DNA from: a virus
Taxonomy: Duplodnaviria > Caudoviricetes
DNA length: 64,000 nt
Virus record (IMG/VR): IMGVR_UViG_3300021426_000064
Location: 64,001 to 128,000 of that record
Strand: one strand, 5' to 3'
Both the position numbers and the translations under genes were made by a program. Shown in pieces: positions 18,223 to 58,711 of this stretch. The notes below the pieces were generated by a model. The model was not told the origin of the DNA, did not search any database, and worked only from the letters and a program-made list of their open reading frames with translations. The first letter of the stretch is position 1. Each line of letters opens with the position of its first letter.

Positions 18223-18747
18223 ATGCTAGATTTAGAAATGACGGACAATGGAGATCTTGCATGGTCTTCGGTGTCGAGCTCGGGCGCTTTTCATTTAAGG
18301 TTTGCGCTGGCAGATTACAAAACGCAGCATATACATTTTCTTTGTAGGCCGACAAGCCGTTTGCAAAACAAACATCGCAAGGGGCAGCGCATTCGCTTCT
18401 GTTTTGCGGAACCAGGAGAAGAGTTTAAGGTACAAACCGGCTTGGTTCAGAATGAAGATGAACGACTACAAGCACTCTACATTGCACTTCGCACAGAGCT
18501 TGGCGATGTAAATGACGATACGGTGGGTTCTGATTTCTATAAAGAGGCTCACCATATCATAGCAGATGCTAATGATTTATCGACTATCCGTGATAAAGCT
18601 GCGGAAGTAGTTGAACGCTTCTTTCCGGGCTCAGTCCTCGAAGCTGAATACTCAATATGTCCAGAGGCAAAAAACTTTAAGTATCAGTCAGTGAAGTTTA
18701 CAATAAAAGATAAAGACAACGAGGTTGTAGCTTCGTTTGTATTCTGA
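18223..18747 (+). CDS. Putative baseplate wedge/sheath initiator (gp25/XkdS-like)
   Basis: MLDLEMTDNGDL N-terminus and LQALYIALRTELGD...VGSDF pattern; position in the baseplate cluster. Confidence 0.55.
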   Translation: MLDLEMTDNGDLAWSSVSSSGAFHLRFALADYKTQHIHFLCRPTSRLQNKHRKGQRIRFCFAEPGEEFKVQTGLVQNEDERLQALYIALRTELGDVNDDTVGSDFYKEAHHIIADANDLSTIRDKAAEVVERFFPGSVLEAEYSICPEAKNFKYQSVKFTIKDKDNEVVASFVF

Positions 18748-18773
18748 GAGAGCGAAAGCTCTCTATTTTTTTT
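18747..18773 (+). terminator. Intrinsic terminator insulating the NAD operon from upstream transcription
   Basis: AGAGAGC-GAAA-GCTCTCT followed by ATTTTTTTT. Confidence 0.8.
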
Positions 18774-18803
18774 GAAAAAATTTGCTTTGCTGTAAAAATA
18801 GTC

Positions 18804-18832
18804 TTGACAAATGTGGTAATGTGTACTACGAT
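18804..18832 (+). promoter_or_regulatory. Sigma-A/70-type promoter of the NAD salvage operon
   Basis: TTGACA (18804-18809), 17-bp spacer, TACGAT (18827-18832); AT-rich upstream. Confidence 0.8.
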
Positions 18833-18855
18833 TAATGTAGTACAAGATACCACAA
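18811..18855. promoter_or_regulatory. Two tandem putative NrtR operators
   Basis: ATGTG-GT-AATGTGT-AC-TACGA (18811-18831) and ATGTA-GT-ACAAGAT-AC-CACAA (18835-18855). Both are imperfect 21-bp palindromes with the GT-N7-AC core known for NrtR sites; they overlap the promoter spacer/-10 and +1. Confidence 0.7.
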
Positions 18856-18871
18856 AAAAGAGGTTGATTAT

Positions 18872-19657
18872 ATGTCAGATACACAAGAAGAGAAGGAATT
18901 TCTCAAGAACTACGATGCGGCACAGTATGAAAGACCATCCGTAACAGCAGATGTTGTTATTTTTACTGTAGACAGAGATAACGAATTAAGTATCCTGTTG
19001 ATAAAGCGCGGAGGGCATCCTTTTAAGGACCATTGGGCTATCCCAGGTGGATTTCTTGAGGCTGGAAAAGAATCCATTGATGAGGCTGCCGCCCGCGAGC
19101 TGTACGAGGAAACGGGAATAAAGGTTTCTGATGGCATCGAACTTAGGCAGCTTATCACAGTTGGTGAACCGGATCGCGACCCGAGAACACATGTCGTGAG
19201 TGTAGTTTATACGGCATTGGTCCCCAAAGGACTTCTACATATAAAAGCAGGGGATGATGCAAAAGAAGCGCAGCTTTTTAAAATTCGCAATGGGTTCGAC
19301 GAAGAAGGAAACCGTAGGATGCGCCTTGTTGGTGATAAGATTTCACTTACCACGGATAACCTTGCATTCGATCATGCCCGTATTGTGAAAATTGCATTGA
19401 AAAGGCTCAAAGGACGGTTAGCATATACGGACGACGCCTTCGCAATGCTCAAGAATAAAAAATGTTTTAAGATTTACGAGCTCAAGAAAATTCACGAAAC
19501 CATTTTACAAAAAGTAATCGACAGAGCGAATTTCCGTAAAATGTTTATTCGAAACTTTGTCGATACCGGTAAGGTTAGAGAATTAAAAAAAGATGAAGTT
19601 GAAGGTGCTGTAAAAACAGCAATGTATATGTATGTTGGAGGAAATGAGCATGAGTAA
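18872..19657 (+). CDS. nrtR: NrtR-family regulator (Nudix ADP-ribose domain + winged HTH)
   Basis: PSVTADVVIF, Nudix box GGFLEAGKESIDEAAARELYEETGI, RDPR, LAFDH, C-terminal wHTH FKIYELKKIHETIL...DRANFRK. Confidence 0.9.
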   Translation: MSDTQEEKEFLKNYDAAQYERPSVTADVVIFTVDRDNELSILLIKRGGHPFKDHWAIPGGFLEAGKESIDEAAARELYEETGIKVSDGIELRQLITVGEPDRDPRTHVVSVVYTALVPKGLLHIKAGDDAKEAQLFKIRNGFDEEGNRRMRLVGDKISLTTDNLAFDHARIVKIALKRLKGRLAYTDDAFAMLKNKKCFKIYELKKIHETILQKVIDRANFRKMFIRNFVDTGKVRELKKDEVEGAVKTAMYMYVGGNEHE

Positions 19658-20201
19658 AAAAGTATTGATTGTTGTTGACATGCAGAACGATTTTATCGAT
19701 GGTGCACTGGGCACTAAAGAAGCTGAGGCTATTGTCGATAACGTAGCCAAGAAGGTTGCGGAGGCAAAAAAGAACGGCGATATCATTATCTTCACGCAGG
19801 ATACACATACGGAAGATTACCTCAACACGCAGGAAGGTAAGAATCTGCCGGTGCCTCACTGTATTAAAGGAACAGATGGCTGGAAGATAACCAACAAGAT
19901 TGACATTCCTGAAAAATGTCTGACGTACGAAAAAGGTTCCTTCGGCTCTGGTGAACTTGGCAAAGACCTTTCCAACAGCGAAGGAGAAATCAGTGCGATT
20001 GAATTCGTTGGGCTCTGCACAGATATCTGCGTACTGTCCAACGCGGTAATTGCAAAAGCGGCACTGCCGGAAGTTCCCATCACAGTAGACGCCGCATGCT
20101 GCGCGGGCGTAACACCGAAGAGCCATGATGAAGCTCTTGGCGCATTGCAGATGATTCAGGTAAAAGTCGCAAACCAAGGGCAGGAACCCTGGAGGGCATA
20201 A
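19650..20201 (+). CDS. pncA: Nicotinamidase (isochorismatase family)
   Basis: LIVVDMQNDF, DTH, PHC, EKGSFG, VGLCTDICV. Start reassigned to ATG 19650, 8 nt after GGAGG. Confidence 0.88.
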   Translation: MSKKVLIVVDMQNDFIDGALGTKEAEAIVDNVAKKVAEAKKNGDIIIFTQDTHTEDYLNTQEGKNLPVPHCIKGTDGWKITNKIDIPEKCLTYEKGSFGSGELGKDLSNSEGEISAIEFVGLCTDICVLSNAVIAKAALPEVPITVDAACCAGVTPKSHDEALGALQMIQVKVANQGQEPWRA

Positions 20202-20202
20202 A

Positions 20203-20739
20203 ATGCGCGTCGGAATTTACTTTGGTTGCTTTATCCCGCTTCATAAAGGACATGAAGCAATAATTAAAACAGCTCTAGCCGAAAATGACCATTTAATTCT
20301 GGGCGTTTGTGGGTATGATAATGACCGCGGCCATGATTATATTCCGTTTCGGCAGCGTATCAATCTTATATCAAAGATATATGGCCGGCGCAAGAATATG
20401 ACTCTGGCGGTTGTAGATGATAAGAAAATCGGCCTCACGGGAACGTTTAGTTTAAGCGCCTGGGAAACTTGGTGCAGCGAATTATTCCGAAACTCTGGGT
20501 TTGACCCCGGTGATAAGGCAAATCAATATGTCTGGTATTCTGGCGAAAAGGATTATCTGGAGAAGATACAGCAGTTATATCCTAGCCACGAAATGCGGTA
20601 CATTTCCAGAGATGTGATTCCGATTTCGGGAACAGAAATCAGAGCAAATACCGGTAAACATATCACGCATATTAATCCGTTCTTTGCTTCATACTTAGCA
20701 GAACGGGGATTATTGGAGGATAACGAATATGAAGTTTAA
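20203..20739 (+). CDS. NMN/NaMN adenylyltransferase, NadR/NadM-like (HxGH nucleotidyltransferase)
   Basis: GCFIPLHKGH and PISGTEIR signature motifs; context within the NAD operon. Confidence 0.8.
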   Translation: MRVGIYFGCFIPLHKGHEAIIKTALAENDHLILGVCGYDNDRGHDYIPFRQRINLISKIYGRRKNMTLAVVDDKKIGLTGTFSLSAWETWCSELFRNSGFDPGDKANQYVWYSGEKDYLEKIQQLYPSHEMRYISRDVIPISGTEIRANTGKHITHINPFFASYLAERGLLEDNEYEV

Positions 20740-21946
20740 TCAGATTATCAATTCTCTTTTAGAAACCGACCTTTACAAGTTCAGCATGGGACAGGCCATC
20801 TTCCATCAGGCCAGCGAATATGAAACCACATGGTCTTTTAAATGCCGCAATAAAGACGTATTCTTTACGCCGGAAATGGTTGAAGAAATCCGTGAGCAGA
20901 TAAAAGCATTCTGTGGCCTGCGTTTTACGGAAGACGAGCTTCAGTATCTGGCCGGAATCAAATGGCTGAAGAAGTCTTATATCAACCATCTGCGCCTGTG
21001 GCGGCCCAATTTTGAGGATTTTGATATCAAGGCGGGCGGCGAAAAGGGTCTTATTCTTGAGGCCAAAGGTACGCTTCTGGACACATCCATGTATGAAATT
21101 CCGACTCTGGCCATTGTTAACGAGGTATATTACCGGTTCCGTGACGACTACGCAATGCTGGTAGAAGATTCCAAGGCTCGTACACGGGCAAAAGCAGAAA
21201 AGATTCAGATGGGCAAGTATTGGCTGCCGGTATTCTCTGAATTTGGCCTGCGCCGCCGCCTTTGTGCAGAAGCACAGGAATTTGCTGTAGAAACATTCTC
21301 CAAGCTGGATTGTCATGATGTCCTGCGTTCCTATTTTGTTGGCACCTCCAACGTTTATCTGGCCAAGAAATATGGCGTAACGCCGGTAGGCACGATGGCA
21401 CATGAATGGATTATGTGCATGGGGCAGGGCAACCATTTGTATAATCCTTCCTACTCCAACAAGGTAGCATTGGAAGCTTGGGTAAGAGAGTACGGCGTAG
21501 ATAATGGTATCGCACTTACCGATACGATTACGACGGACTGCTTCCTGCGCGACTTCAACAAGACGCTGGCTACGCTCTTCAGTGGTGTACGTCATGACTC
21601 CGGTGACCCGTTTGTATGGGGCGACAAGATGATTGACCATTACACTCGTCTTGGCATTGACCCGATGACGAAGACCCTGCTGTTCTCTGACTCTCTGAAC
21701 TTTGAGAAGGCAGACAAAATTGCCCACTATTTCGAGGGCAAGGCCAAGGTCGCTTTCGGCATTGGTACTTATATTGCCAACGACACCTATGCTGAGCCCT
21801 TGAACATTGTCATGAAGGTGACGGAATGCAATGGCAGCCCGGTTGCAAAAATCTCCGATACCGCTGGTAAGGGGATGTGCAAGAGTCAGGAATATGTGGA
21901 CTACTTGCAGAGAGCTATTGACTGGCGCTTGAAGAACAAAGACTAA
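20729..21946 (+). CDS. pncB: Nicotinate phosphoribosyltransferase
   Basis: LLETDLYKFSM, EFGLRRR, GTSNV, GTMAHEW (phospho-His), GVRHDSGDP, FSDSL, FGIGT, LNIVMK, KISD. Confidence 0.95.
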   Translation: MKFNQIINSLLETDLYKFSMGQAIFHQASEYETTWSFKCRNKDVFFTPEMVEEIREQIKAFCGLRFTEDELQYLAGIKWLKKSYINHLRLWRPNFEDFDIKAGGEKGLILEAKGTLLDTSMYEIPTLAIVNEVYYRFRDDYAMLVEDSKARTRAKAEKIQMGKYWLPVFSEFGLRRRLCAEAQEFAVETFSKLDCHDVLRSYFVGTSNVYLAKKYGVTPVGTMAHEWIMCMGQGNHLYNPSYSNKVALEAWVREYGVDNGIALTDTITTDCFLRDFNKTLATLFSGVRHDSGDPFVWGDKMIDHYTRLGIDPMTKTLLFSDSLNFEKADKIAHYFEGKAKVAFGIGTYIANDTYAEPLNIVMKVTECNGSPVAKISDTAGKGMCKSQEYVDYLQRAIDWRLKNKD

Positions 21947-22012
21947 GGGGTGTGGCTCCTCGCTGTTTAGTATGGGTATAGTATAGATATATATACAGAA
22001 AGGACAATCGCT

Positions 22013-22921
22013 TTGAATATCAAATGCTCATATATTGGTTGTGAAGAAAATGCTACATGCATCACAACTGTAATGAATAGACAAATCCCATCATGCGAAC
22101 ATCATAAAGATAAATTTAACATCATTGAAGGTACATCAAACGTTTTGAAATGTGGTCCTGAATTTGATGCAAAGAAAGATAAAGAAAAGATTATCAGCTT
22201 TTTGAGAAACTGGTTTGCCGAAAACGGCACACCGGAAACAAAAGCTGTGATAGGCATTTCCGGAGGCAAGGACTCTTCTATTGCTGCAGCACTTTGCGTA
22301 GAAGCACTGGGGAAAGATAGTGTCATCGGAGTTCTTATGCCCAATGGCATTCAGCCAGACATTGATGATGCGCTTGAGGTGGTAAAACATCTCGGTATCA
22401 AATACCGCATTGTCAATATTGAATCGTCGTACAAAGCCATGCTTAAAGCGCTGCAATATACCGAGGCTAAAGTTGATAACAACTTCCATTTTTCAGTTAC
22501 AGACCAGCTTCTTCAGAATCTTGCGCCAAGGTTACGGATGGCAACGTTATATGCTATAGCGCAGGGAGTAGAAGGCGGTGGCCGCGTTATCAATACCTGC
22601 AACCGTTCTGAAGACTATGTAGGTTATTCGACAAAATTCGGTGATAGCGCCGGCGACGTTTCCCCGCTTGGCGCTTATACCGTAGATGAAGTCCTGGCCA
22701 TTGGAGCACTTTTGGACATTCCGGAAAGGCTGGTACACAAAACTCCTTCCGACGGTCTCTGCGGCAAAACCGATGAAGACAACCTGGGCTTTACTTATGC
22801 CGTTTTAGACAAGTATATAAAAACCGGCGAATGTGAGGATGAACTGGTGCAGAAGCGAATTGATGAGCTGCATTATATCAATCTTCACAAACTCAAGCCA
22901 ATGCCAATGGTTAAGCGGTAA
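22013..22921 (+). CDS. nadE: NH3-dependent NAD+ synthetase with Cys/His-rich N-terminal extension
   Basis: IGISGGKDSS, NLAPRLRMATLY, TCNRSEDYVGYSTKFGD, KTPSDGL, TDEDNLGFTY; no glutaminase domain; RBS AGAAAGGA before the TTG start. Confidence 0.93.
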   Translation: MNIKCSYIGCEENATCITTVMNRQIPSCEHHKDKFNIIEGTSNVLKCGPEFDAKKDKEKIISFLRNWFAENGTPETKAVIGISGGKDSSIAAALCVEALGKDSVIGVLMPNGIQPDIDDALEVVKHLGIKYRIVNIESSYKAMLKALQYTEAKVDNNFHFSVTDQLLQNLAPRLRMATLYAIAQGVEGGGRVINTCNRSEDYVGYSTKFGDSAGDVSPLGAYTVDEVLAIGALLDIPERLVHKTPSDGLCGKTDEDNLGFTYAVLDKYIKTGECEDELVQKRIDELHYINLHKLKPMPMVKR

Positions 22922-22926
22922 TCAGC

Positions 22927-22962
22927 AAAAAGCTTCTATCGAATGATAGAGGCTTTTTATTT
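22927..22962 (+). terminator. Intrinsic terminator ending the NAD operon (possibly bidirectional)
   Basis: AAAAAGCTTCTATC-GAAT-GATAGAGGCTTTTT. Confidence 0.8.
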
Positions 22963-23040
22963 ATGCGTGGACTAAAGCATTCCAGATGGTAATGTCTGGA
23001 CTAGATAAAATTCGGAAAACACCAGATAGGAAGGAAAACA

Positions 23041-23829
23041 ATGCGTACAGCTGAAGATATAAATTTAAGCATAAAAGATAGTTTTTATAAGTTAACCGGG
23101 CGGGAATACCGGGCGGGAAGCGCACTGGGGTTTATTACGGACGCTGTGTCGCGCGAAATGGAAACGGCTCATCTTGAAATCGAGCGCAATAAAAATCCCC
23201 ATATCTATACAAATCTATACGGGGAAGACCTTGATAAAATGGGGGCATTTGTGAATGTTCCTCGCGAAGCCGGCGAAGATGATATGACATACCTGTACAG
23301 GATTATGAATTGGACATATTTAAAAGCAGGGGCAAATAATATTGCTGTAAACGACTCTTTGCTTAACCTGGAGTATGCTTCCGATGCCCAATACTATCCG
23401 AAACTTCATGGCGCGGGAACGGGTGTTATTTACATTATCCCAACAGAGTATAGCGACGATATTATGGCAAAGGCGTTGGCCGAGGTAAAAAAGCGGGTTG
23501 AAAATGTTATTTCGCCAGAGTCTTATACGGAATATATTATTCCCACGGCGGTGCCGGTTAATCTGATATGCCACTTAGAAGTAAACGGCGGCGATGTTTC
23601 TTACATTAAGGATAAGATTACAGAGGCGCTAAAAGAATACATCAATGGGATTGCTCCAAACACCTACCTGTCCGTCGGCGAAATGAACCGGATTGGGCTG
23701 GAAATGGATAATGTTGATTTCTTCTCGATAGATGGAGTCTATCTTAACGAGGAATACAATACTGATACAAAAATACTGCAAGAGCTAGAAACTAAAATGT
23801 TATTTCAGGAAATAAGCTGGGAGGATTAA
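23041..23829 (+). CDS. Baseplate J-like wedge protein
   Basis: LYGEDLDKMGAFVNVPREAGEDDMTYLYRI, AQYYP..GAGTGVIYI, ITEALKEYINGI..LSVGEM patterns typical of baseplate J. Confidence 0.7.
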   Translation: MRTAEDINLSIKDSFYKLTGREYRAGSALGFITDAVSREMETAHLEIERNKNPHIYTNLYGEDLDKMGAFVNVPREAGEDDMTYLYRIMNWTYLKAGANNIAVNDSLLNLEYASDAQYYPKLHGAGTGVIYIIPTEYSDDIMAKALAEVKKRVENVISPESYTEYIIPTAVPVNLICHLEVNGGDVSYIKDKITEALKEYINGIAPNTYLSVGEMNRIGLEMDNVDFFSIDGVYLNEEYNTDTKILQELETKMLFQEISWED

Positions 23830-34961: not shown

Positions 34962-37904
34962 ATGCAGTTTTTGAGTAAAACTACAATTGGTTTTAGTGAT
35001 AATAAACAGAATATCGGCGGTGTCAGTATCATCGACAAATACATAGCTGACAAAAAGCTGACGGATTTGGATTTGCGCTTGGCGGCAGAAGGTATGCCCA
35101 AGACACTTAATCAGAAAACATTGGCATATGATCCCGCAAGCGGCCAGATTTATATCGGCGATAGCGCAGGCAAACCGATTACGGTTTCGAACATCAAAGT
35201 TATTGTGTCCATGGATGAACTGCCTGCAACCGGCGTTGACAATGTTTTGTATGTTGGCCTCAATGAGAAAGCATTTGCGGTTTGGGACAGCAGCAACAAC
35301 GCCTGGGTTAAAATGGCTTCGGATGGCTCCGGCAGTGCTGTATTGGATAAATCGGTAGAAGTATATCCGACAAAAGCAAATTTCCCGCTCGAAGGTAAGA
35401 AAGATAAATTATATATCACAAACGATGCGAAATGTTACTTCTTTGCCGACGGTGAATACAAGCCCATGTTTGAGGGTAAGGCAGACACCTATACAAAAGC
35501 AGAGGCAGATGCTAAGTTTATTCAGGCTGCAGTTTTGGATAAAAAGGCAAATGCTGCTGACGTATACAGTAAAGCAGATGTGGACAGCTTGCTTGAAAGT
35601 GTACAAGGCGTAAAGGGTGACCGCGGTGAACAGGGCCTGCAGGGTGAACCCGGTAAGGACGGCGCTCCTGGTAAAGATGGTAAGGATGGCGTAGACGGCA
35701 AGAATGGCAAATCGGCCTATGATATTGCGGTTGAAAATGGGTTCGGTGGCAACCAGACTGCATGGCTGCAGTCATTAAAAGGCGAGACTGGCGATAAAGG
35801 CGAAACCGGTGTACAGGGGCCCCAGGGCGAAAAAGGTGACACCGGCGCGCAAGGCCCGAAAGGCGATACGGGTGCTCAAGGACCTAAAGGTGATAAGGGC
35901 GATACCGGAGCACAAGGACCTCAGGGCGAACAGGGTAAACAAGGTTTGCCAGGTGTTGACGGTGTAGATGGTAAAGATGGCAAAGACGGAGCAGAAGGAA
36001 AATCTGCTTACGAAATTGCTGTGAAAAATGGTTTCGATGGTACTGAACAGGAATGGTTAGACTCCCTTAAAGGTGTAGACGGTGTTCAAGGCCCGAAAGG
36101 TGAGCAAGGTATTCAGGGTGTTCAAGGCGAACAGGGTGCTCAGGGTATTCAGGGTGAAATTGGTCCGCAGGGTCCGCAAGGTGAAGTTGGCCCGCAGGGT
36201 GAGAAAGGCGCTGATGGTAAATCAGCTTACGAGATTGCTGTAGCAAACGGCTTCGTTGGTTCCGAATCAGACTGGCTGGCGTCCCTCAAAGGTGAAAGTC
36301 TTAATCCTGAAAGCTATTACAGCAAAGCCGAGGTTGACCAGAAAATTGCTGACGCTGCTGCAGGCGAAGAAGTAGACCTTAGCGGATATGCAAAGGCGGA
36401 TGCCCTGAATGATAAAGCTGACAAAAACGATGTTTATAGTGTTGCCGCCGCTGATGCTAAGTTTGCCACGATAAAAACGGTTGAAGAAAAACTTGCAGAA
36501 GTATCCACCATTAAAGGCGATAAGGGCGACCAGGGCGAAGTTGGTCCTCAAGGGCCGCAGGGTGAACAGGGCATCCAAGGTATTCAGGGTGAGCAAGGTG
36601 TTCAAGGGCCGCAGGGCGAAGCAGGCAAAGACGGTAAAGACGGTGCAAGCGGAAAAAGCGCTTACGAGATTGCCGTAGCTAATGGTTTTGTTGGTGGAGA
36701 AGAAGCTTGGCTTGAATCGCTCAAGGGCGAAAAAGGTGTCGACGGTAAAGACGGTAAAGATGGCGAACAAGGCCCGCAAGGTGAAGCTGGTGAACAAGGA
36801 CCGAAAGGTGATCCTGGACAGGATGGTCGTGATGGCGTAGACGGTAAGGACGGCCAGAACGGCAAAGATGGTAAAGACGGTAAGAGTGCCTACGAGATTG
36901 CTCAGGAAAATGGCTTTACAGGCACGGAAGCGGAATGGGTAGAATCCCTTAAAGGCGCAGACGCAGAGCCTGTAGATACCTCTAAATTTGCTCAGAAGTC
37001 TGATTTAGAAGGACTCGCAAAAGCCGAAGATATTCCCGACGTAAGCAACCTCGCTACTAAAGATGACATTCCTGACGTAAGCGTATTGGCTAAAAAGAGT
37101 GACATCCCCGATGTGTCTAACTTGGCTACTAAAGACGATATTCCTGACCTCACGGGCTATGCCAAGACCGAGGATATCCCTAAGCAGAAAACTCTGGCAG
37201 AACTCGGCGGCGTAACGCAGGCAGGCGTTGAGTCCATTATTCAGGCGAAAGATTTTACTTCTACTGATGTAGTACGTCAGATGATTGCCGATGCTATAGC
37301 AAAAGCTTTAAAAGATAATGAAAATAGCGGCGGCAGCGCTACTCCTTCTGACCCCACTCCAGCAGATCCCACTCCGACTACTCCAGATACACCGGCTGAA
37401 GAACCGAGCGATAGTGATTGGAAGTGGACGAAATATCTCGTAATGCCGGCTGGAACTACGGACATTACTGAAGACATGGATACCTTCTTCGGCGAGAAAT
37501 TTAACCACCCGGATGAATTCGTTGGCGCCGACATGGATATGAAAAATACCACAACTGAATTCCGCTTTATCGGAACCTTACGTTCTCGTCAGTCTGACAA
37601 GCCCGCTTATTTAGTTGACAGTATTGATCAGGCTCCTGCAATTGGTGTAGATTACAGCAAGAAGTTTAAAGACGGCATGAGAGTTCCTATCGATGGATTC
37701 GAAGACGAAGGAAAAGCCGCATTTGATGAAGCCCTCAAAGAAGAAAACATCATTACGACAGGTATCATGCAGTATGACGGAGAAGCGGTTTTGAACCTCA
37801 GCTACACCAGCGTTGCTTGTGACCAGTTGTATATGGTTCGTAAGATTAAAGACGGCAAGGTTATTCCTGAATTCTCGTTAGGAGAAAGAATTGACGGGAA
37901 ATAA
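34962..37904 (+). CDS. Collagen-like fibre protein
   Basis: Multiple G-X-Y tracts punctuated by 5 GKSAY(D/E)IA..NGF.G...W..SLKG modules, then DIPDVS repeats, a Pro/Thr linker and a C-terminal globular domain. Confidence 0.85.
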   Translation: MQFLSKTTIGFSDNKQNIGGVSIIDKYIADKKLTDLDLRLAAEGMPKTLNQKTLAYDPASGQIYIGDSAGKPITVSNIKVIVSMDELPATGVDNVLYVGLNEKAFAVWDSSNNAWVKMASDGSGSAVLDKSVEVYPTKANFPLEGKKDKLYITNDAKCYFFADGEYKPMFEGKADTYTKAEADAKFIQAAVLDKKANAADVYSKADVDSLLESVQGVKGDRGEQGLQGEPGKDGAPGKDGKDGVDGKNGKSAYDIAVENGFGGNQTAWLQSLKGETGDKGETGVQGPQGEKGDTGAQGPKGDTGAQGPKGDKGDTGAQGPQGEQGKQGLPGVDGVDGKDGKDGAEGKSAYEIAVKNGFDGTEQEWLDSLKGVDGVQGPKGEQGIQGVQGEQGAQGIQGEIGPQGPQGEVGPQGEKGADGKSAYEIAVANGFVGSESDWLASLKGESLNPESYYSKAEVDQKIADAAAGEEVDLSGYAKADALNDKADKNDVYSVAAADAKFATIKTVEEKLAEVSTIKGDKGDQGEVGPQGPQGEQGIQGIQGEQGVQGPQGEAGKDGKDGASGKSAYEIAVANGFVGGEEAWLESLKGEKGVDGKDGKDGEQGPQGEAGEQGPKGDPGQDGRDGVDGKDGQNGKDGKDGKSAYEIAQENGFTGTEAEWVESLKGADAEPVDTSKFAQKSDLEGLAKAEDIPDVSNLATKDDIPDVSVLAKKSDIPDVSNLATKDDIPDLTGYAKTEDIPKQKTLAELGGVTQAGVESIIQAKDFTSTDVVRQMIADAIAKALKDNENSGGSATPSDPTPADPTPTTPDTPAEEPSDSDWKWTKYLVMPAGTTDITEDMDTFFGEKFNHPDEFVGADMDMKNTTTEFRFIGTLRSRQSDKPAYLVDSIDQAPAIGVDYSKKFKDGMRVPIDGFEDEGKAAFDEALKEENIITTGIMQYDGEAVLNLSYTSVACDQLYMVRKIKDGKVIPEFSLGERIDGK

Positions 37905-57011: not shown

Positions 57012-57677
57012 ATGCAGGTCACGGATGCGAATTTTTTCTACAAGAACTACGTCGGGTATTATCCTAATGAAGATTGGATGTTTGAATCTACACAAGGCAT
57101 GATTGAACATTACGTTGAGTCTGGCCTGAAAGAAAAGCTATTGGATATATACGAAGCATGTGCCGGGGATGGTGTCCTTGCTGCAGATAATATCCCGTAT
57201 GAATTGTGGCAGGATGGGAATATCCTTATTCCCGGCAGGTTCTATTTACACCCCGAGCTGACATTAATGCAGCGAGCACCGGAAATAAATATTTTTACCG
57301 GCGAAGCGGTAGTAAGGCCTCATTATCGGGAAATAAGGGAACTGTACACGCTAAACGACGTCTTACTGTATGCAGGGAAGATGCTGCGCAGAGATACATT
57401 GCTTAAAGATGAAAAACAAGATATCGGCGCCATAAAACATTTACTTAAGCGATATGCAAGACAACAGGAAGAACTTGGCATTATGGCGCTGGATATGATT
57501 CTTTACCTCATACGCCATCATAAAGGCGAAAGGATAGAGCTTCTTAACATATCTCAGGACGAAGATATTGTAGCACAGCAGGTAAGAGCGTACGCAGAAA
57601 AGCTAAAGACAATGGGCAGACACAAAATAATTTGGAGGGAAAATATAAGATGCTGTCGGAAGGATTCATTGAAGTAG
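57012..57677 (+). CDS. Hypothetical protein heading the primase-helicase operon
   Basis: 221 aa with RBS; no recognised motif. Confidence 0.7.
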   Translation: MQVTDANFFYKNYVGYYPNEDWMFESTQGMIEHYVESGLKEKLLDIYEACAGDGVLAADNIPYELWQDGNILIPGRFYLHPELTLMQRAPEINIFTGEAVVRPHYREIRELYTLNDVLLYAGKMLRRDTLLKDEKQDIGAIKHLLKRYARQQEELGIMALDMILYLIRHHKGERIELLNISQDEDIVAQQVRAYAEKLKTMGRHKIIWRENIRCCRKDSLK

Positions 57678-58711
57678 GTGGAAAGTGTGGCAACTACTTC
57701 ACAAGAAATATGGTTTACCCGCTGAATAATCGGCAAAAAGCTTTTGCCGACCTTAAAAAGAAAACAGGCGGCAGGGATATGTATTACTGTACGTATGTAT
57801 TCGACAATAAGACCCGTGAAAAAGGGACAAGGTTCTTTTCGCCGCTCTATTTCGACATTGATGGGGATATTCAGACTGACGAGGGCTTTGAACGGGTAAG
57901 GCTGGCAGCACTATCCCTTGCGACAATTCTTAATATAGAACTGAGGCTGAACGTAAATGAAATGAAGTTCTATTTTTCTGGCGGAAAAGGCTTTCATGTT
58001 TTTATTGACCCTCGTATTCTGGGGGTAAAACCAAGCACAAAACTTCCGGCATTATACAAGCTGTATGTATCTTACTTAAGCCGTAAGATAGAAAACGGCG
58101 CGCTACTGGACACAAGAATATATGACAGTCGCCGCCTGATTCGTTTCCCGAATACGATAAATGACAAAACCGGCTTATATAAAATTCCGATAACATACAA
58201 CCAACTTCGGACGCTTACAAGGGAGCAACTTTTCAGCTTAGCGAAAAACCCTCAGCAGGAATATGTTACTTCGGTAAAATTCAATCAGGAGGCGGCAAGC
58301 CGCTTTGTAGATAAGCTCCGCGAAATGGCGCAGGAACAGGCACAGCCAACAAGTAGTAATATACATATACCAAGCAGCGCTCAAAAATTGCCGTTATGTG
58401 TAAAGCATCTGCTCTCGACGACAGTAGACAAAGGCGGCAGGAACAATACACTCGCATTGATAGCGTCCCTTCTTGTTCAGAATGGTTATGTAGGGGATGT
58501 CGCAATCAGTATACTGCAGGATTGGAATATGGGCAACGCTGAGCCGCTTACTGACCATGAACTTATCACGACATATAACAGCGCTGAACGAATGGCAAGA
58601 GCGGGCAGGGGATATGGATGTTCTTCTATAAGACAACAAGGGGCTTTTGCTCCAAGGGAAGTTTGTCCAAAATGTAAGATTTTTAAATGTAAACACGGGG
58701 CGGGGAGATAA
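57650..58711 (+). CDS. Archaeo-eukaryotic-type primase/primase-polymerase with C-terminal PriCT/PriL-like domain
   Basis: LYFDIDGD, FSGGKGFHV, RLIRFPNTINDKTG, GGRNNTL, and Cys cluster LPLC...GCSSI...CPKC. Start set at ATG 57650 after GGAGG. Confidence 0.85.
   Translation: MLSEGFIEVGGKCGNYFTRNMVYPLNNRQKAFADLKKKTGGRDMYYCTYVFDNKTREKGTRFFSPLYFDIDGDIQTDEGFERVRLAALSLATILNIELRLNVNEMKFYFSGGKGFHVFIDPRILGVKPSTKLPALYKLYVSYLSRKIENGALLDTRIYDSRRLIRFPNTINDKTGLYKIPITYNQLRTLTREQLFSLAKNPQQEYVTSVKFNQEAASRFVDKLREMAQEQAQPTSSNIHIPSSAQKLPLCVKHLLSTTVDKGGRNNTLALIASLLVQNGYVGDVAISILQDWNMGNAEPLTDHELITTYNSAERMARAGRGYGCSSIRQQGAFAPREVCPKCKIFKCKHGAGR

Follow-up and report, generated by a model that had tools for sequence, protein, structure and literature searches.

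A putative NAD+ salvage operon of Selenomonas descent in a large contractile-tailed phage, with a NadR-type adenylyltransferase gene added from the phage gene pool

Results

A five-gene NAD+ salvage cassette

The stretch of DNA analyzed here (hereafter, the window) is 64,000 nucleotides long and represents positions 64001-128000 of one record of 184,341 bp, the IMG/VR virus record IMGVR_UViG_3300021426_000064. It contains a cassette of genes for the salvage of nicotinamide adenine dinucleotide (NAD+), in which five intact genes, nrtR, pncA, a gene for a NadR-type nicotinamide mononucleotide (NMN) adenylyltransferase (NMNAT), pncB and nadE, are tightly packed in the same direction on the + strand within a unit spanning 18747-22965 (Table 1). 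This five-gene unit had been proposed from the sequence in an earlier note (the original prediction), and the identities of its genes were confirmed by domain and equivalog profiles, motifs and solved relatives.

Table 1. Features of the NAD+ salvage cassette, in window coordinates.
Feature	Position	Strand	Description
Intrinsic terminator	18747..18773	+	7-bp GC-rich stem, GAAA loop, T8 run; closes the upstream virion gene (174-aa ORF, 18223-18747)
Sigma-70-type promoter	18804..18832	+	TTGACA-17 nt-TACGAT; 10/12 consensus matches
NrtR operator 1 (predicted)	18813..18829	+	17-bp palindrome GTGGTA-N5-TACTAC; fills the promoter spacer and -10 region
NrtR operator 2 (predicted)	18837..18853	+	17-bp palindrome GTAGTA-N5-TACCAC; 7 nt past operator 1
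nrtR	18872..19657	+	261 aa; Nudix-like sensor domain and C-terminal winged helix
pncA	19650..20201	+	Nicotinamidase, 183 aa; translationally coupled to nrtR
NMNAT gene	20203..20739	+	Stand-alone NadR-type NMN adenylyltransferase, 178 aa; between pncA and pncB; non-host gene
pncB	20729..21946	+	Nicotinate phosphoribosyltransferase, 405 aa
Strain-specific insertion	21947..22156	+	~190 nt, after pncB and ahead of the conserved start of nadE; GC 0.35
nadE	22013 or 22145..22921	+	NH3-dependent NAD synthetase family; core from ~22157; alternative start TTG 22145
Terminator hairpin	22927..22965	+	14-bp stem (minimum free energy and centroid folds), z = -3.9; A-tract before, T-tract after

The product of nrtR has a Nudix-like domain (Pfam NUDIX, 2e-20, residues 27-138) fused to a winged helix (NrtR_WHD, residues 198-236, 27.0 bits against a cut-off of 27), which is the domain arrangement of the NrtR family. 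Its closest solved structures were 2FML (5e-33, both domains) and Shewanella NrtR 3GZ5, which matched in two stretches, and it is 67-70% identical to NrtR of Selenomonas. When it was compared with the narrower NCBIfam equivalog NF050029, the score of 133 bits was below the cut-off of 400. The REUxEE motif of the Nudix box is intact, with one extra residue ahead of the first glutamate (G-x6-E spacing), so that a residual ADP-ribose hydrolase activity is conceivable.

The start of pncA was moved from 19632 to the ATG at 19650, which has GGAGG 7 nt upstream and overlaps with the nrtR stop. PncA has the isochorismatase fold (Pfam, 3e-25), aligns with the P. horikoshii nicotinamidase 1ILW at the Asp/Lys/Cys triad and at the metal ligands (D-x-H...H), and is 60-65% identical to Selenomonas PncA. 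PncB scored above two NCBIfam equivalog cut-offs, with 412.6 bits for TIGR01514 (cut-off 269.6) and 471.7 bits for NF003704 (cut-off 379). NadE scored 169 bits for TIGR00552 against a cut-off of 63.7, its translation contains the SGGKDS ATP-pyrophosphatase loop, and its core is 67-77% identical to Selenomonas NadE. The solved structures 3FIU (top match), the Francisella enzyme, and 2E18 matched NadE with equal scores, both at about 1e-33.

The insertion between pncB and nadE is missing from a 99%-identical relative (L003), from the second phage lineage (L005) and from the host. When it is read in frame from TTG 22013, it adds a 48-aa Cys/His-rich extension (CxxxxC...C...CxHH) to NadE, and when nadE starts at TTG 22145, it is left non-coding. 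Neither repeats nor a peptide homologue were found for it, and no second copy of it was present in the genome or in any of the loci compared.

Promoter, operators and terminators

The cassette has its own promoter and a terminator on either side, as had been stated in the original prediction (Table 1). The 3' terminator closes the cassette ahead of a baseplate-like gene at 23041. By these features, the cassette is predicted to be an insulated, self-contained transcription unit (a "moron") between two tail/baseplate genes.

The proposed control by NrtR also held, as judged from the predicted operators. The pattern RTRGTA-N5-TACYAY had exactly two matches in the window and also in the whole 184-kb record, where 0.02 would be expected by chance, and both matches were at the cassette promoter. 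Both contain GT-N7-AC, the published operator core of most NrtR groups (Rodionov et al., PMC2330246), and tandem NrtR sites over promoters have been documented, including those of Shewanella prs-nadV (PMC2330246). The layout of TTGACA followed by operators precedes nrtR in every fetched orthologous operon with an NrtR of at least 50% identity, and the half-sites co-vary by lineage. Because the phage operators differ in hardly any letter from the ones of Selenomonas ruminantium S137 (L091), cross-regulation of the phage operon by the host NrtR is likely. In other species, NrtR dissociates from DNA in vitro in the presence of ADP-ribose (PMC2330246; PMC12735969), and from these family members we infer that ADP-ribose would also relieve DNA binding by the phage NrtR.

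The cassette is on phage DNA

The 184,341-bp record is classed as viral, linear and 78% complete. The proteins immediately flanking the cassette gave almost nothing against PHROG: there were weak baseplate matches for a 262-aa protein, and collagen-like tail-fibre matches further on. Therefore, 105 open reading frames (ORFs) of the whole record were scanned to settle the identity of the phage. Major head protein, portal and tail sheath families were found with E-values of 1e-35 to 1e-52, and DNA polymerase III alpha, helicases, RtcB, RNA ligase and PhoH were also found. An ENA contig of 334 kb carried an identical cassette locus with both junctions, and a Logan contig had the upstream junction in common with the record and ended within nadE. 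The cassette was located between the same structural genes in five IMG/VR contigs belonging to two lineages, in which PncB was 99% identical in one lineage and 93% in the other. In a more distant relative (L188), homologues of the flanking 174-aa and 262-aa genes are 33 nt apart with no cassette between them, which shows a clean insertion of the cassette between two conserved phage genes.

The structural-gene matches, the viral class, the independent assemblies, the synteny in relatives and the empty site in L188 together establish that the cassette is on genuine phage DNA, and its location inside a virion operon, as originally described, was verified as a position within the tail/baseplate gene block. 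No match was obtained when the locus was compared with GenBank phages by megablast. Taking the second-lineage relative G031 (235.5 kb, 96% completeness) into account, we describe the carrier as a contractile-tailed phage of about 235 kb, with rumen Selenomonas as its predicted host and a salvage operon of apparent host origin.

Several other genes were noticed in the same genome. The window contains a 980-aa collagen-repeat tail-fibre protein (34962-37904; PHROG matches to 1e-75) and a primase-like protein (57632-58711; phrog_16345, 8.5e-34), and most of its other large ORFs had no PHROG match at all. A tyrosine integrase (G000:C1:167133-168119, + strand; PF00589, 1.5e-23) and a ParA-like protein are encoded, which could point to a temperate lifestyle or to a plasmid-prophage. 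An ADP-ribosylglycohydrolase outside the window (G000:C1:162938-163837, - strand; PF03747, 1e-50) adds a second link to NAD/ADP-ribose chemistry. In the second lineage, a gene for a 422-aa IscB RNA-guided endonuclease (NF040563, 1e-112; L005:5604-6872 in IMGVR_UViG_3300023713_000001) splits the operon between nrtR and pncA. An RRXRR/IscB-like match and an IS200 Y1 transposase were also present elsewhere in this record.

Four of the genes descend from a Selenomonas operon

The PncB proteins of S. ruminantium, S. caprae and Selenomonas sp. shared 83-87% identity with the phage PncB, whose next cellular relatives, in Lachnospiraceae, were about 70% identical. The order nrtR-pncA-pncB-nadE, with no adenylyltransferase gene, was found in all four Selenomonas loci fetched. 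In the chromosomal operon of S. ruminantium and S. caprae (L083, L091-L094), these genes have the same order and orientation as in the phage, with 60-87% identity, and two tandem palindromic operators come right after TTGACA as they do in the phage, nearly identically in S137. The two operons differ in that only the phage copy has a NadR-type NMNAT gene between pncA and pncB, is located among tail genes and, in this isolate, carries the insertion before nadE. In a quick maximum-likelihood tree, with support values from SH-aLRT only, the phage PncBs grouped together as a single clade inside that of Selenomonas, with the S137 group as its neighbour. These results indicate that nrtR, pncA, pncB and nadE descend from a chromosomal, NrtR-regulated operon of Selenomonas. 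The GC content at third codon positions (GC3) of pncA and pncB was host-like.

The ratio of nonsynonymous to synonymous substitution rates (dN/dS) was 0.02-0.18 for all five genes within the phage lineage, which means that all of them are under purifying selection, and synonymous divergence (dS) was saturated between the two phage lineages. The simplest reading would be a single old capture of the operon, which was then maintained; the cassette is probably useful to the phage. An ordinary host operon on a non-phage contig had been named beforehand as a finding that would speak against the original prediction. One half of this was found, because the operon is of host descent, and the other half was not, because the DNA around it is phage.

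The fifth gene encodes a NadR-type adenylyltransferase

The NMNAT carries the motifs GxFxPxHxGH and ISGTEIR of HIGH-motif nucleotidyltransferases, and its best solved relative was Lactococcus NadR (PDB 6GYE, 1e-20). In the profile comparison, 6GYE (2e-46), the NARP3 enzyme Bas30_86 (9X6F, 5e-21) and 1LW7 (3e-18) were matched, and the values for NadM and NadD were 4e-6 and 3e-4. The AlphaFold2 model (pLDDT 93) had NadR structures as its best folds, with TM-scores of 0.71-0.75. By profile and by modelled fold, the enzyme is of the NadR type. With 178 aa it covers the adenylyltransferase (AT) domain only, and no match to the RNK domain (AAA_28/RNK) was above the cut-off. A split NadR with a separate RNK partner was also considered, and it was rejected since no RNK was found.

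No homologue of the NMNAT was found in 24 Selenomonas species genomes, and a pattern search of the species genome collection gave no close relatives. The family is rare, with 238 clusters matching at E <=1e-3 among 1.8 billion representatives. The nearest relatives, 44-52% identical, were in complete large IMG/VR phages of 172-467 kb, at the same locus as pncA, pncB and nadE, and other homologues were on phage-like contigs. We considered whether the ~70%-identical IMG/VR matches were all misfiled bacteria, and this was rejected, because each of the four NMNAT-bearing records that were checked was classed as viral and complete, and three had terminal repeats. A Butyrivibrio chromosomal operon, nrtR-pncA-X-pncB-nadE, carries a 28%-identical NMNAT homologue (X) in the same slot. 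Taken together, the distribution suggests that the NMNAT gene comes from the phage gene pool and was added to the captured host operon.

Variants of the cassette and of the NMNAT were also observed. In one locus (L177:3513-11281), nrtR is preceded by an AAA_28 kinase-like gene, and pncB is separated from nadE by a radical SAM gene together with small ORFs. In another (L089:6670-11044), a nucleoside 2-deoxyribosyltransferase-like gene lies between pncB and nadE. A 328-aa NMNAT homologue, whose AT domain is 50% identical and whose additional C-terminal half was assigned to no family, adjoins an AcrVA2-like gene at L178:6001-8180, and both belong to a series of small ORFs on one strand, as is typical of phage early regions.

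Completeness of the route

The original prediction had claimed a complete route from nicotinamide to NAD+. The steps of PncA, PncB and NadE stood. A phage-encoded conversion of nicotinate mononucleotide (NaMN) to nicotinate adenine dinucleotide is left in doubt, because the only adenylyltransferase is of the NadR type and no NadD was found: nothing was above the cut-off for NadD (TIGR00482) in the record or in relatives of 90-100% completeness. NadD was above the cut-off in four of four genomes of Selenomonas and Butyrivibrio. Hence the idea that Butyrivibrio or Selenomonas lack NadD, which would force the NMNAT of the operon to act on NaMN, was rejected.

The absence of prs that had been noted for the window extends further, as the Pribosyltran_N domain was found neither in the record nor in two relatives of 90-96% completeness. 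There was no match to PnuC (PF04973), and neither Nampt nor a second gene of the NAPRTase family was found, the one NAPRTase-family match in each genome being PncB by equivalog score.

An NAD-dependent DNA ligase releases NMN. Such a ligase was encoded in five of the six near-complete phages bearing the NMNAT, namely the 99% relative G032 (G032:C1:24896-25594), the second-lineage G031 (G031:C1:184175-184864) and three of the four others. Because the ligase of these relatives releases NMN, even an NMN-specific NMNAT would have a clear role.

Discussion

A possible course of events during infection

From these parts, the following mechanism can be proposed. NrtR, of either phage or host origin, would occupy the two tandem palindromes that cover the promoter, and ADP-ribose, a mark of NAD+ cleavage, would release it, as known members of the family suggest. 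PncA would convert nicotinamide to nicotinate, and PncB would convert nicotinate to NaMN with phosphoribosyl pyrophosphate (PRPP) of the host. For the adenylylation of NaMN we see three options. We tentatively favour the use of the host NadD, given that the phage NadE shares 67-77% identity with a host NadE whose partner in the pathway is NadD. It is possible, with less confidence, that the phage enzyme is bifunctional. A reversed order, in which NadE first amidates NaMN to NMN as in Francisella, seems doubtful. NadE would complete the synthesis of NAD+, and the NMNAT would also re-adenylylate NMN, the by-product of the ligase of close relatives. The net effect would be that the NAD+ pool of the infected cell is upheld when needed, without reliance on host gene expression and with amplification through the copy number of the phage genome. 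Blunting of NAD-depleting defences would be a plausible consequence.

Relation to known systems

The name of a third NAD-reconstitution pathway, which the original prediction had proposed for the cassette, is already taken, because NARP3, consisting of PnuC and NadR (the NadR-like Bas30_86), has been named (Sci Adv 2026, PMC13464706). The NMNAT domain of Bas30_86 is homologous to the phage NMNAT, and NARP2, NARP3 and the phage NMNAT all end in the reaction of NMN and ATP to NAD+. NARP3, however, includes PnuC, and its NMNAT is fused to an RNK domain; the phage cassette has neither PnuC nor RNK. NARP2 consists of Nampt and Nmnat; the phage has an Nmnat but no Nampt, and its entry from nicotinamide is by deamidation. 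NARP1 (Adps and Namat) uses a PRPS-like synthetase of ADP-ribose pyrophosphate and a Nampt-like transferase, neither of which is in the phage. Thus, all three pathways are absent as such, since no prs, Nampt, PnuC or RNK was found. The original prediction set the deamidating route apart from NARP1 and NARP2, in agreement with the NARP1/2 paper, in which this route is not mentioned.

Preiss-Handler clusters such as pncB-nadD-nadE of Kuafu_71 have been reported in gut jumbo phages, together with NAD-consuming companion enzymes and with counter-defence as a proposal (Microbiome 2024, PMC11662467). Like those phages, the phage described here is a large gut/rumen phage with clustered genes of the deamidated route. 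In that paper, however, the adenylyltransferase is nadD, pncA is mentioned in passing, and NrtR and its operators have no occurrence, whereas the phage here has NrtR and a NadR-type enzyme. An NAD-jumbo phage was defined there as having a genome of >200 kb that encodes all genes of one NAD+ pathway. Judging from G031, the genome of our phage is probably above this size, and whether it encodes all genes of a pathway depends on whether the NadR-type enzyme accepts NaMN.

In the NrtR regulons of salvage pathway I (PMC2330246), an ADP-ribose-responsive repressor with Nudix and winged helix-turn-helix domains heads a Preiss-Handler operon, as in the layout of the phage cassette. Those regulons are bacterial and use NadD, while the present one is phage-borne and has a NadR-type adenylyltransferase. 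In Francisella tularensis, according to the summary in PMC3376133 of Sorci et al. 2009, NaMN is converted to NMN by the NMN synthetase NadE* and then to NAD by NadM. This route combines a NadE-family enzyme with an NMN-preferring adenylyltransferase, and the phage unit likewise has no NadD, with 3FIU as the top solved match of its NadE. The similarity of the phage NadE to the host enzyme of a NadD background, and the equal scores of 2E18 and 3FIU, set the phage apart from it.

A survey of viral NAD/ADP-ribose systems by the Aravind group mentions NrtR for bacterial systems only, and an experimental test of PncA/PncB/NadE as an anti-defence was not found in the literature searched. In the same literature, a phage-borne NrtR repressor-operator switch and a NadR-type enzyme in place of NadD appear to be undescribed. 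As a general phenomenon, NAD clusters have been published before for gut jumbo phages.

Function of the cassette in the phage

We regard it as reasonably probable that the cassette is a captured host salvage operon, supplemented with a phage-type NMNAT, that keeps NAD+ up during infection. Several points weigh against this. E. coli NadR is reported to be specific for NMN (PMC8745210), and with no NadD found in the phage, the route from nicotinamide to NAD+ may need the NadD of the host. Such a possible dependence weakens the notion of an "independent" NAD+ reconstitution. As the host appears to have the same operon already, the benefit would come by dosage and timing only. The NAD-dependent DNA ligase is not on the present 184-kb fragment, which probably lacks the part of the genome that bears it. 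The start of nadE is disturbed by the strain-specific insertion in this isolate, and the -10 hexamer TACGAT looks weak.

It has also to be asked whether the cassette belongs to the phage in any functional sense. The high identity to host genes, above all that of PncB, and the host-like GC3 of pncA and pncB could point to a recently transduced, functionless host fragment or to a chimeric contig. However, the same junctions were found in three independent assemblies and five IMG/VR contigs, the genes were retained across lineages with saturated synonymous sites at a dN/dS of 0.18 or less, and L188 preserves the empty site. The idea of passenger DNA or an assembly artefact is largely refuted by these observations, and we consider it very improbable. 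A benefit to the lysogen rather than to lytic growth, in which a moron of a prophage or plasmid-prophage gives Selenomonas additional salvage of niacin or nicotinamide in the rumen, would fit an insulated insert with a host-type promoter and two terminators, the presence of the integrase and the ParA-like protein, and the finding that NadA of the de novo route is present in only 13 of 24 Selenomonas species genomes. The gain would be small, however, because the operon is already in all four Selenomonas genomes examined. Neither an attachment site nor a lysogen was found, and the phage-specific NMNAT and the ligase point to needs of the phage. This explanation seems quite improbable.

A more serious alternative is that the cassette is kept chiefly as a dedicated counter-defence, rebuilding NAD+ fast enough against Thoeris, DSR, SIR2-HerA and TIR effectors, with nicotinamide as the substrate and ADP-ribose as the inducer; it would then be a fourth functional NAD reconstitution pathway. 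The logic of NrtR and ADP-ribose agrees with what NADase defences release, the NMNAT has the NARP3 enzyme among its relatives, a 328-aa homologue of the NMNAT on a phage-like contig is a neighbour of an AcrVA2-like gene, and the idea is in print for phage NAD clusters (PMC11662467). SIR2_2 was found in 5 and TIR_2 in 2 of the 24 Selenomonas species genomes, so that hosts with NADase defence domains do occur but are a minority. On the other hand, four ATP-consuming steps with host PRPP, and perhaps host NadD, would make the route slower and less autonomous than NARP1-3, and a host operon of the same design serves ordinary housekeeping. Moreover, the NAD-consuming ligase of the phage lineage explains a need for NAD+ without any defence; because close relatives encode it, general NAD upkeep rivals the anti-defence explanation. 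We hold a dedicated counter-defence to be possible, although on the unlikely side.

A variant goes further and makes the NAD+ rebuilding both independent of NadD and inducible by ADP-ribose. Here the NadR-type enzyme would replace NadD, either by accepting NaMN or by following an NMN-synthetase-like NadE. Because the operators match those of the host, the resident host NrtR would silence the incoming operon, until a NADase defence releases ADP-ribose, and the cassette would be a self-triggering counter-defence distinct from NARP1-3. We think this unlikely.

Significance

Bacteria commonly deplete NAD+ to cut a phage infection short, and experiments have established three pathways by which phages rebuild NAD+. 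None of the three is deamidating, and none is known to have its own metabolite-sensing switch. The value of the present locus is tempered by the NAD clusters already published for gut jumbo phages, and the anti-NADase role, although plausible from the gene content, competes with the plain upkeep of NAD+ in a ligase-bearing phage. Nevertheless, the locus would be a clean, evolutionarily dated case in which a phage acquired an entire regulated operon of its host together with the repressor and the operators, kept it under selection, and added an enzyme that apparently came from the phage gene pool. It also provides a concrete construct with which it can be asked whether phages can survive NADase defences with the help of the Preiss-Handler route, and whether sensing of ADP-ribose gives on-demand control.

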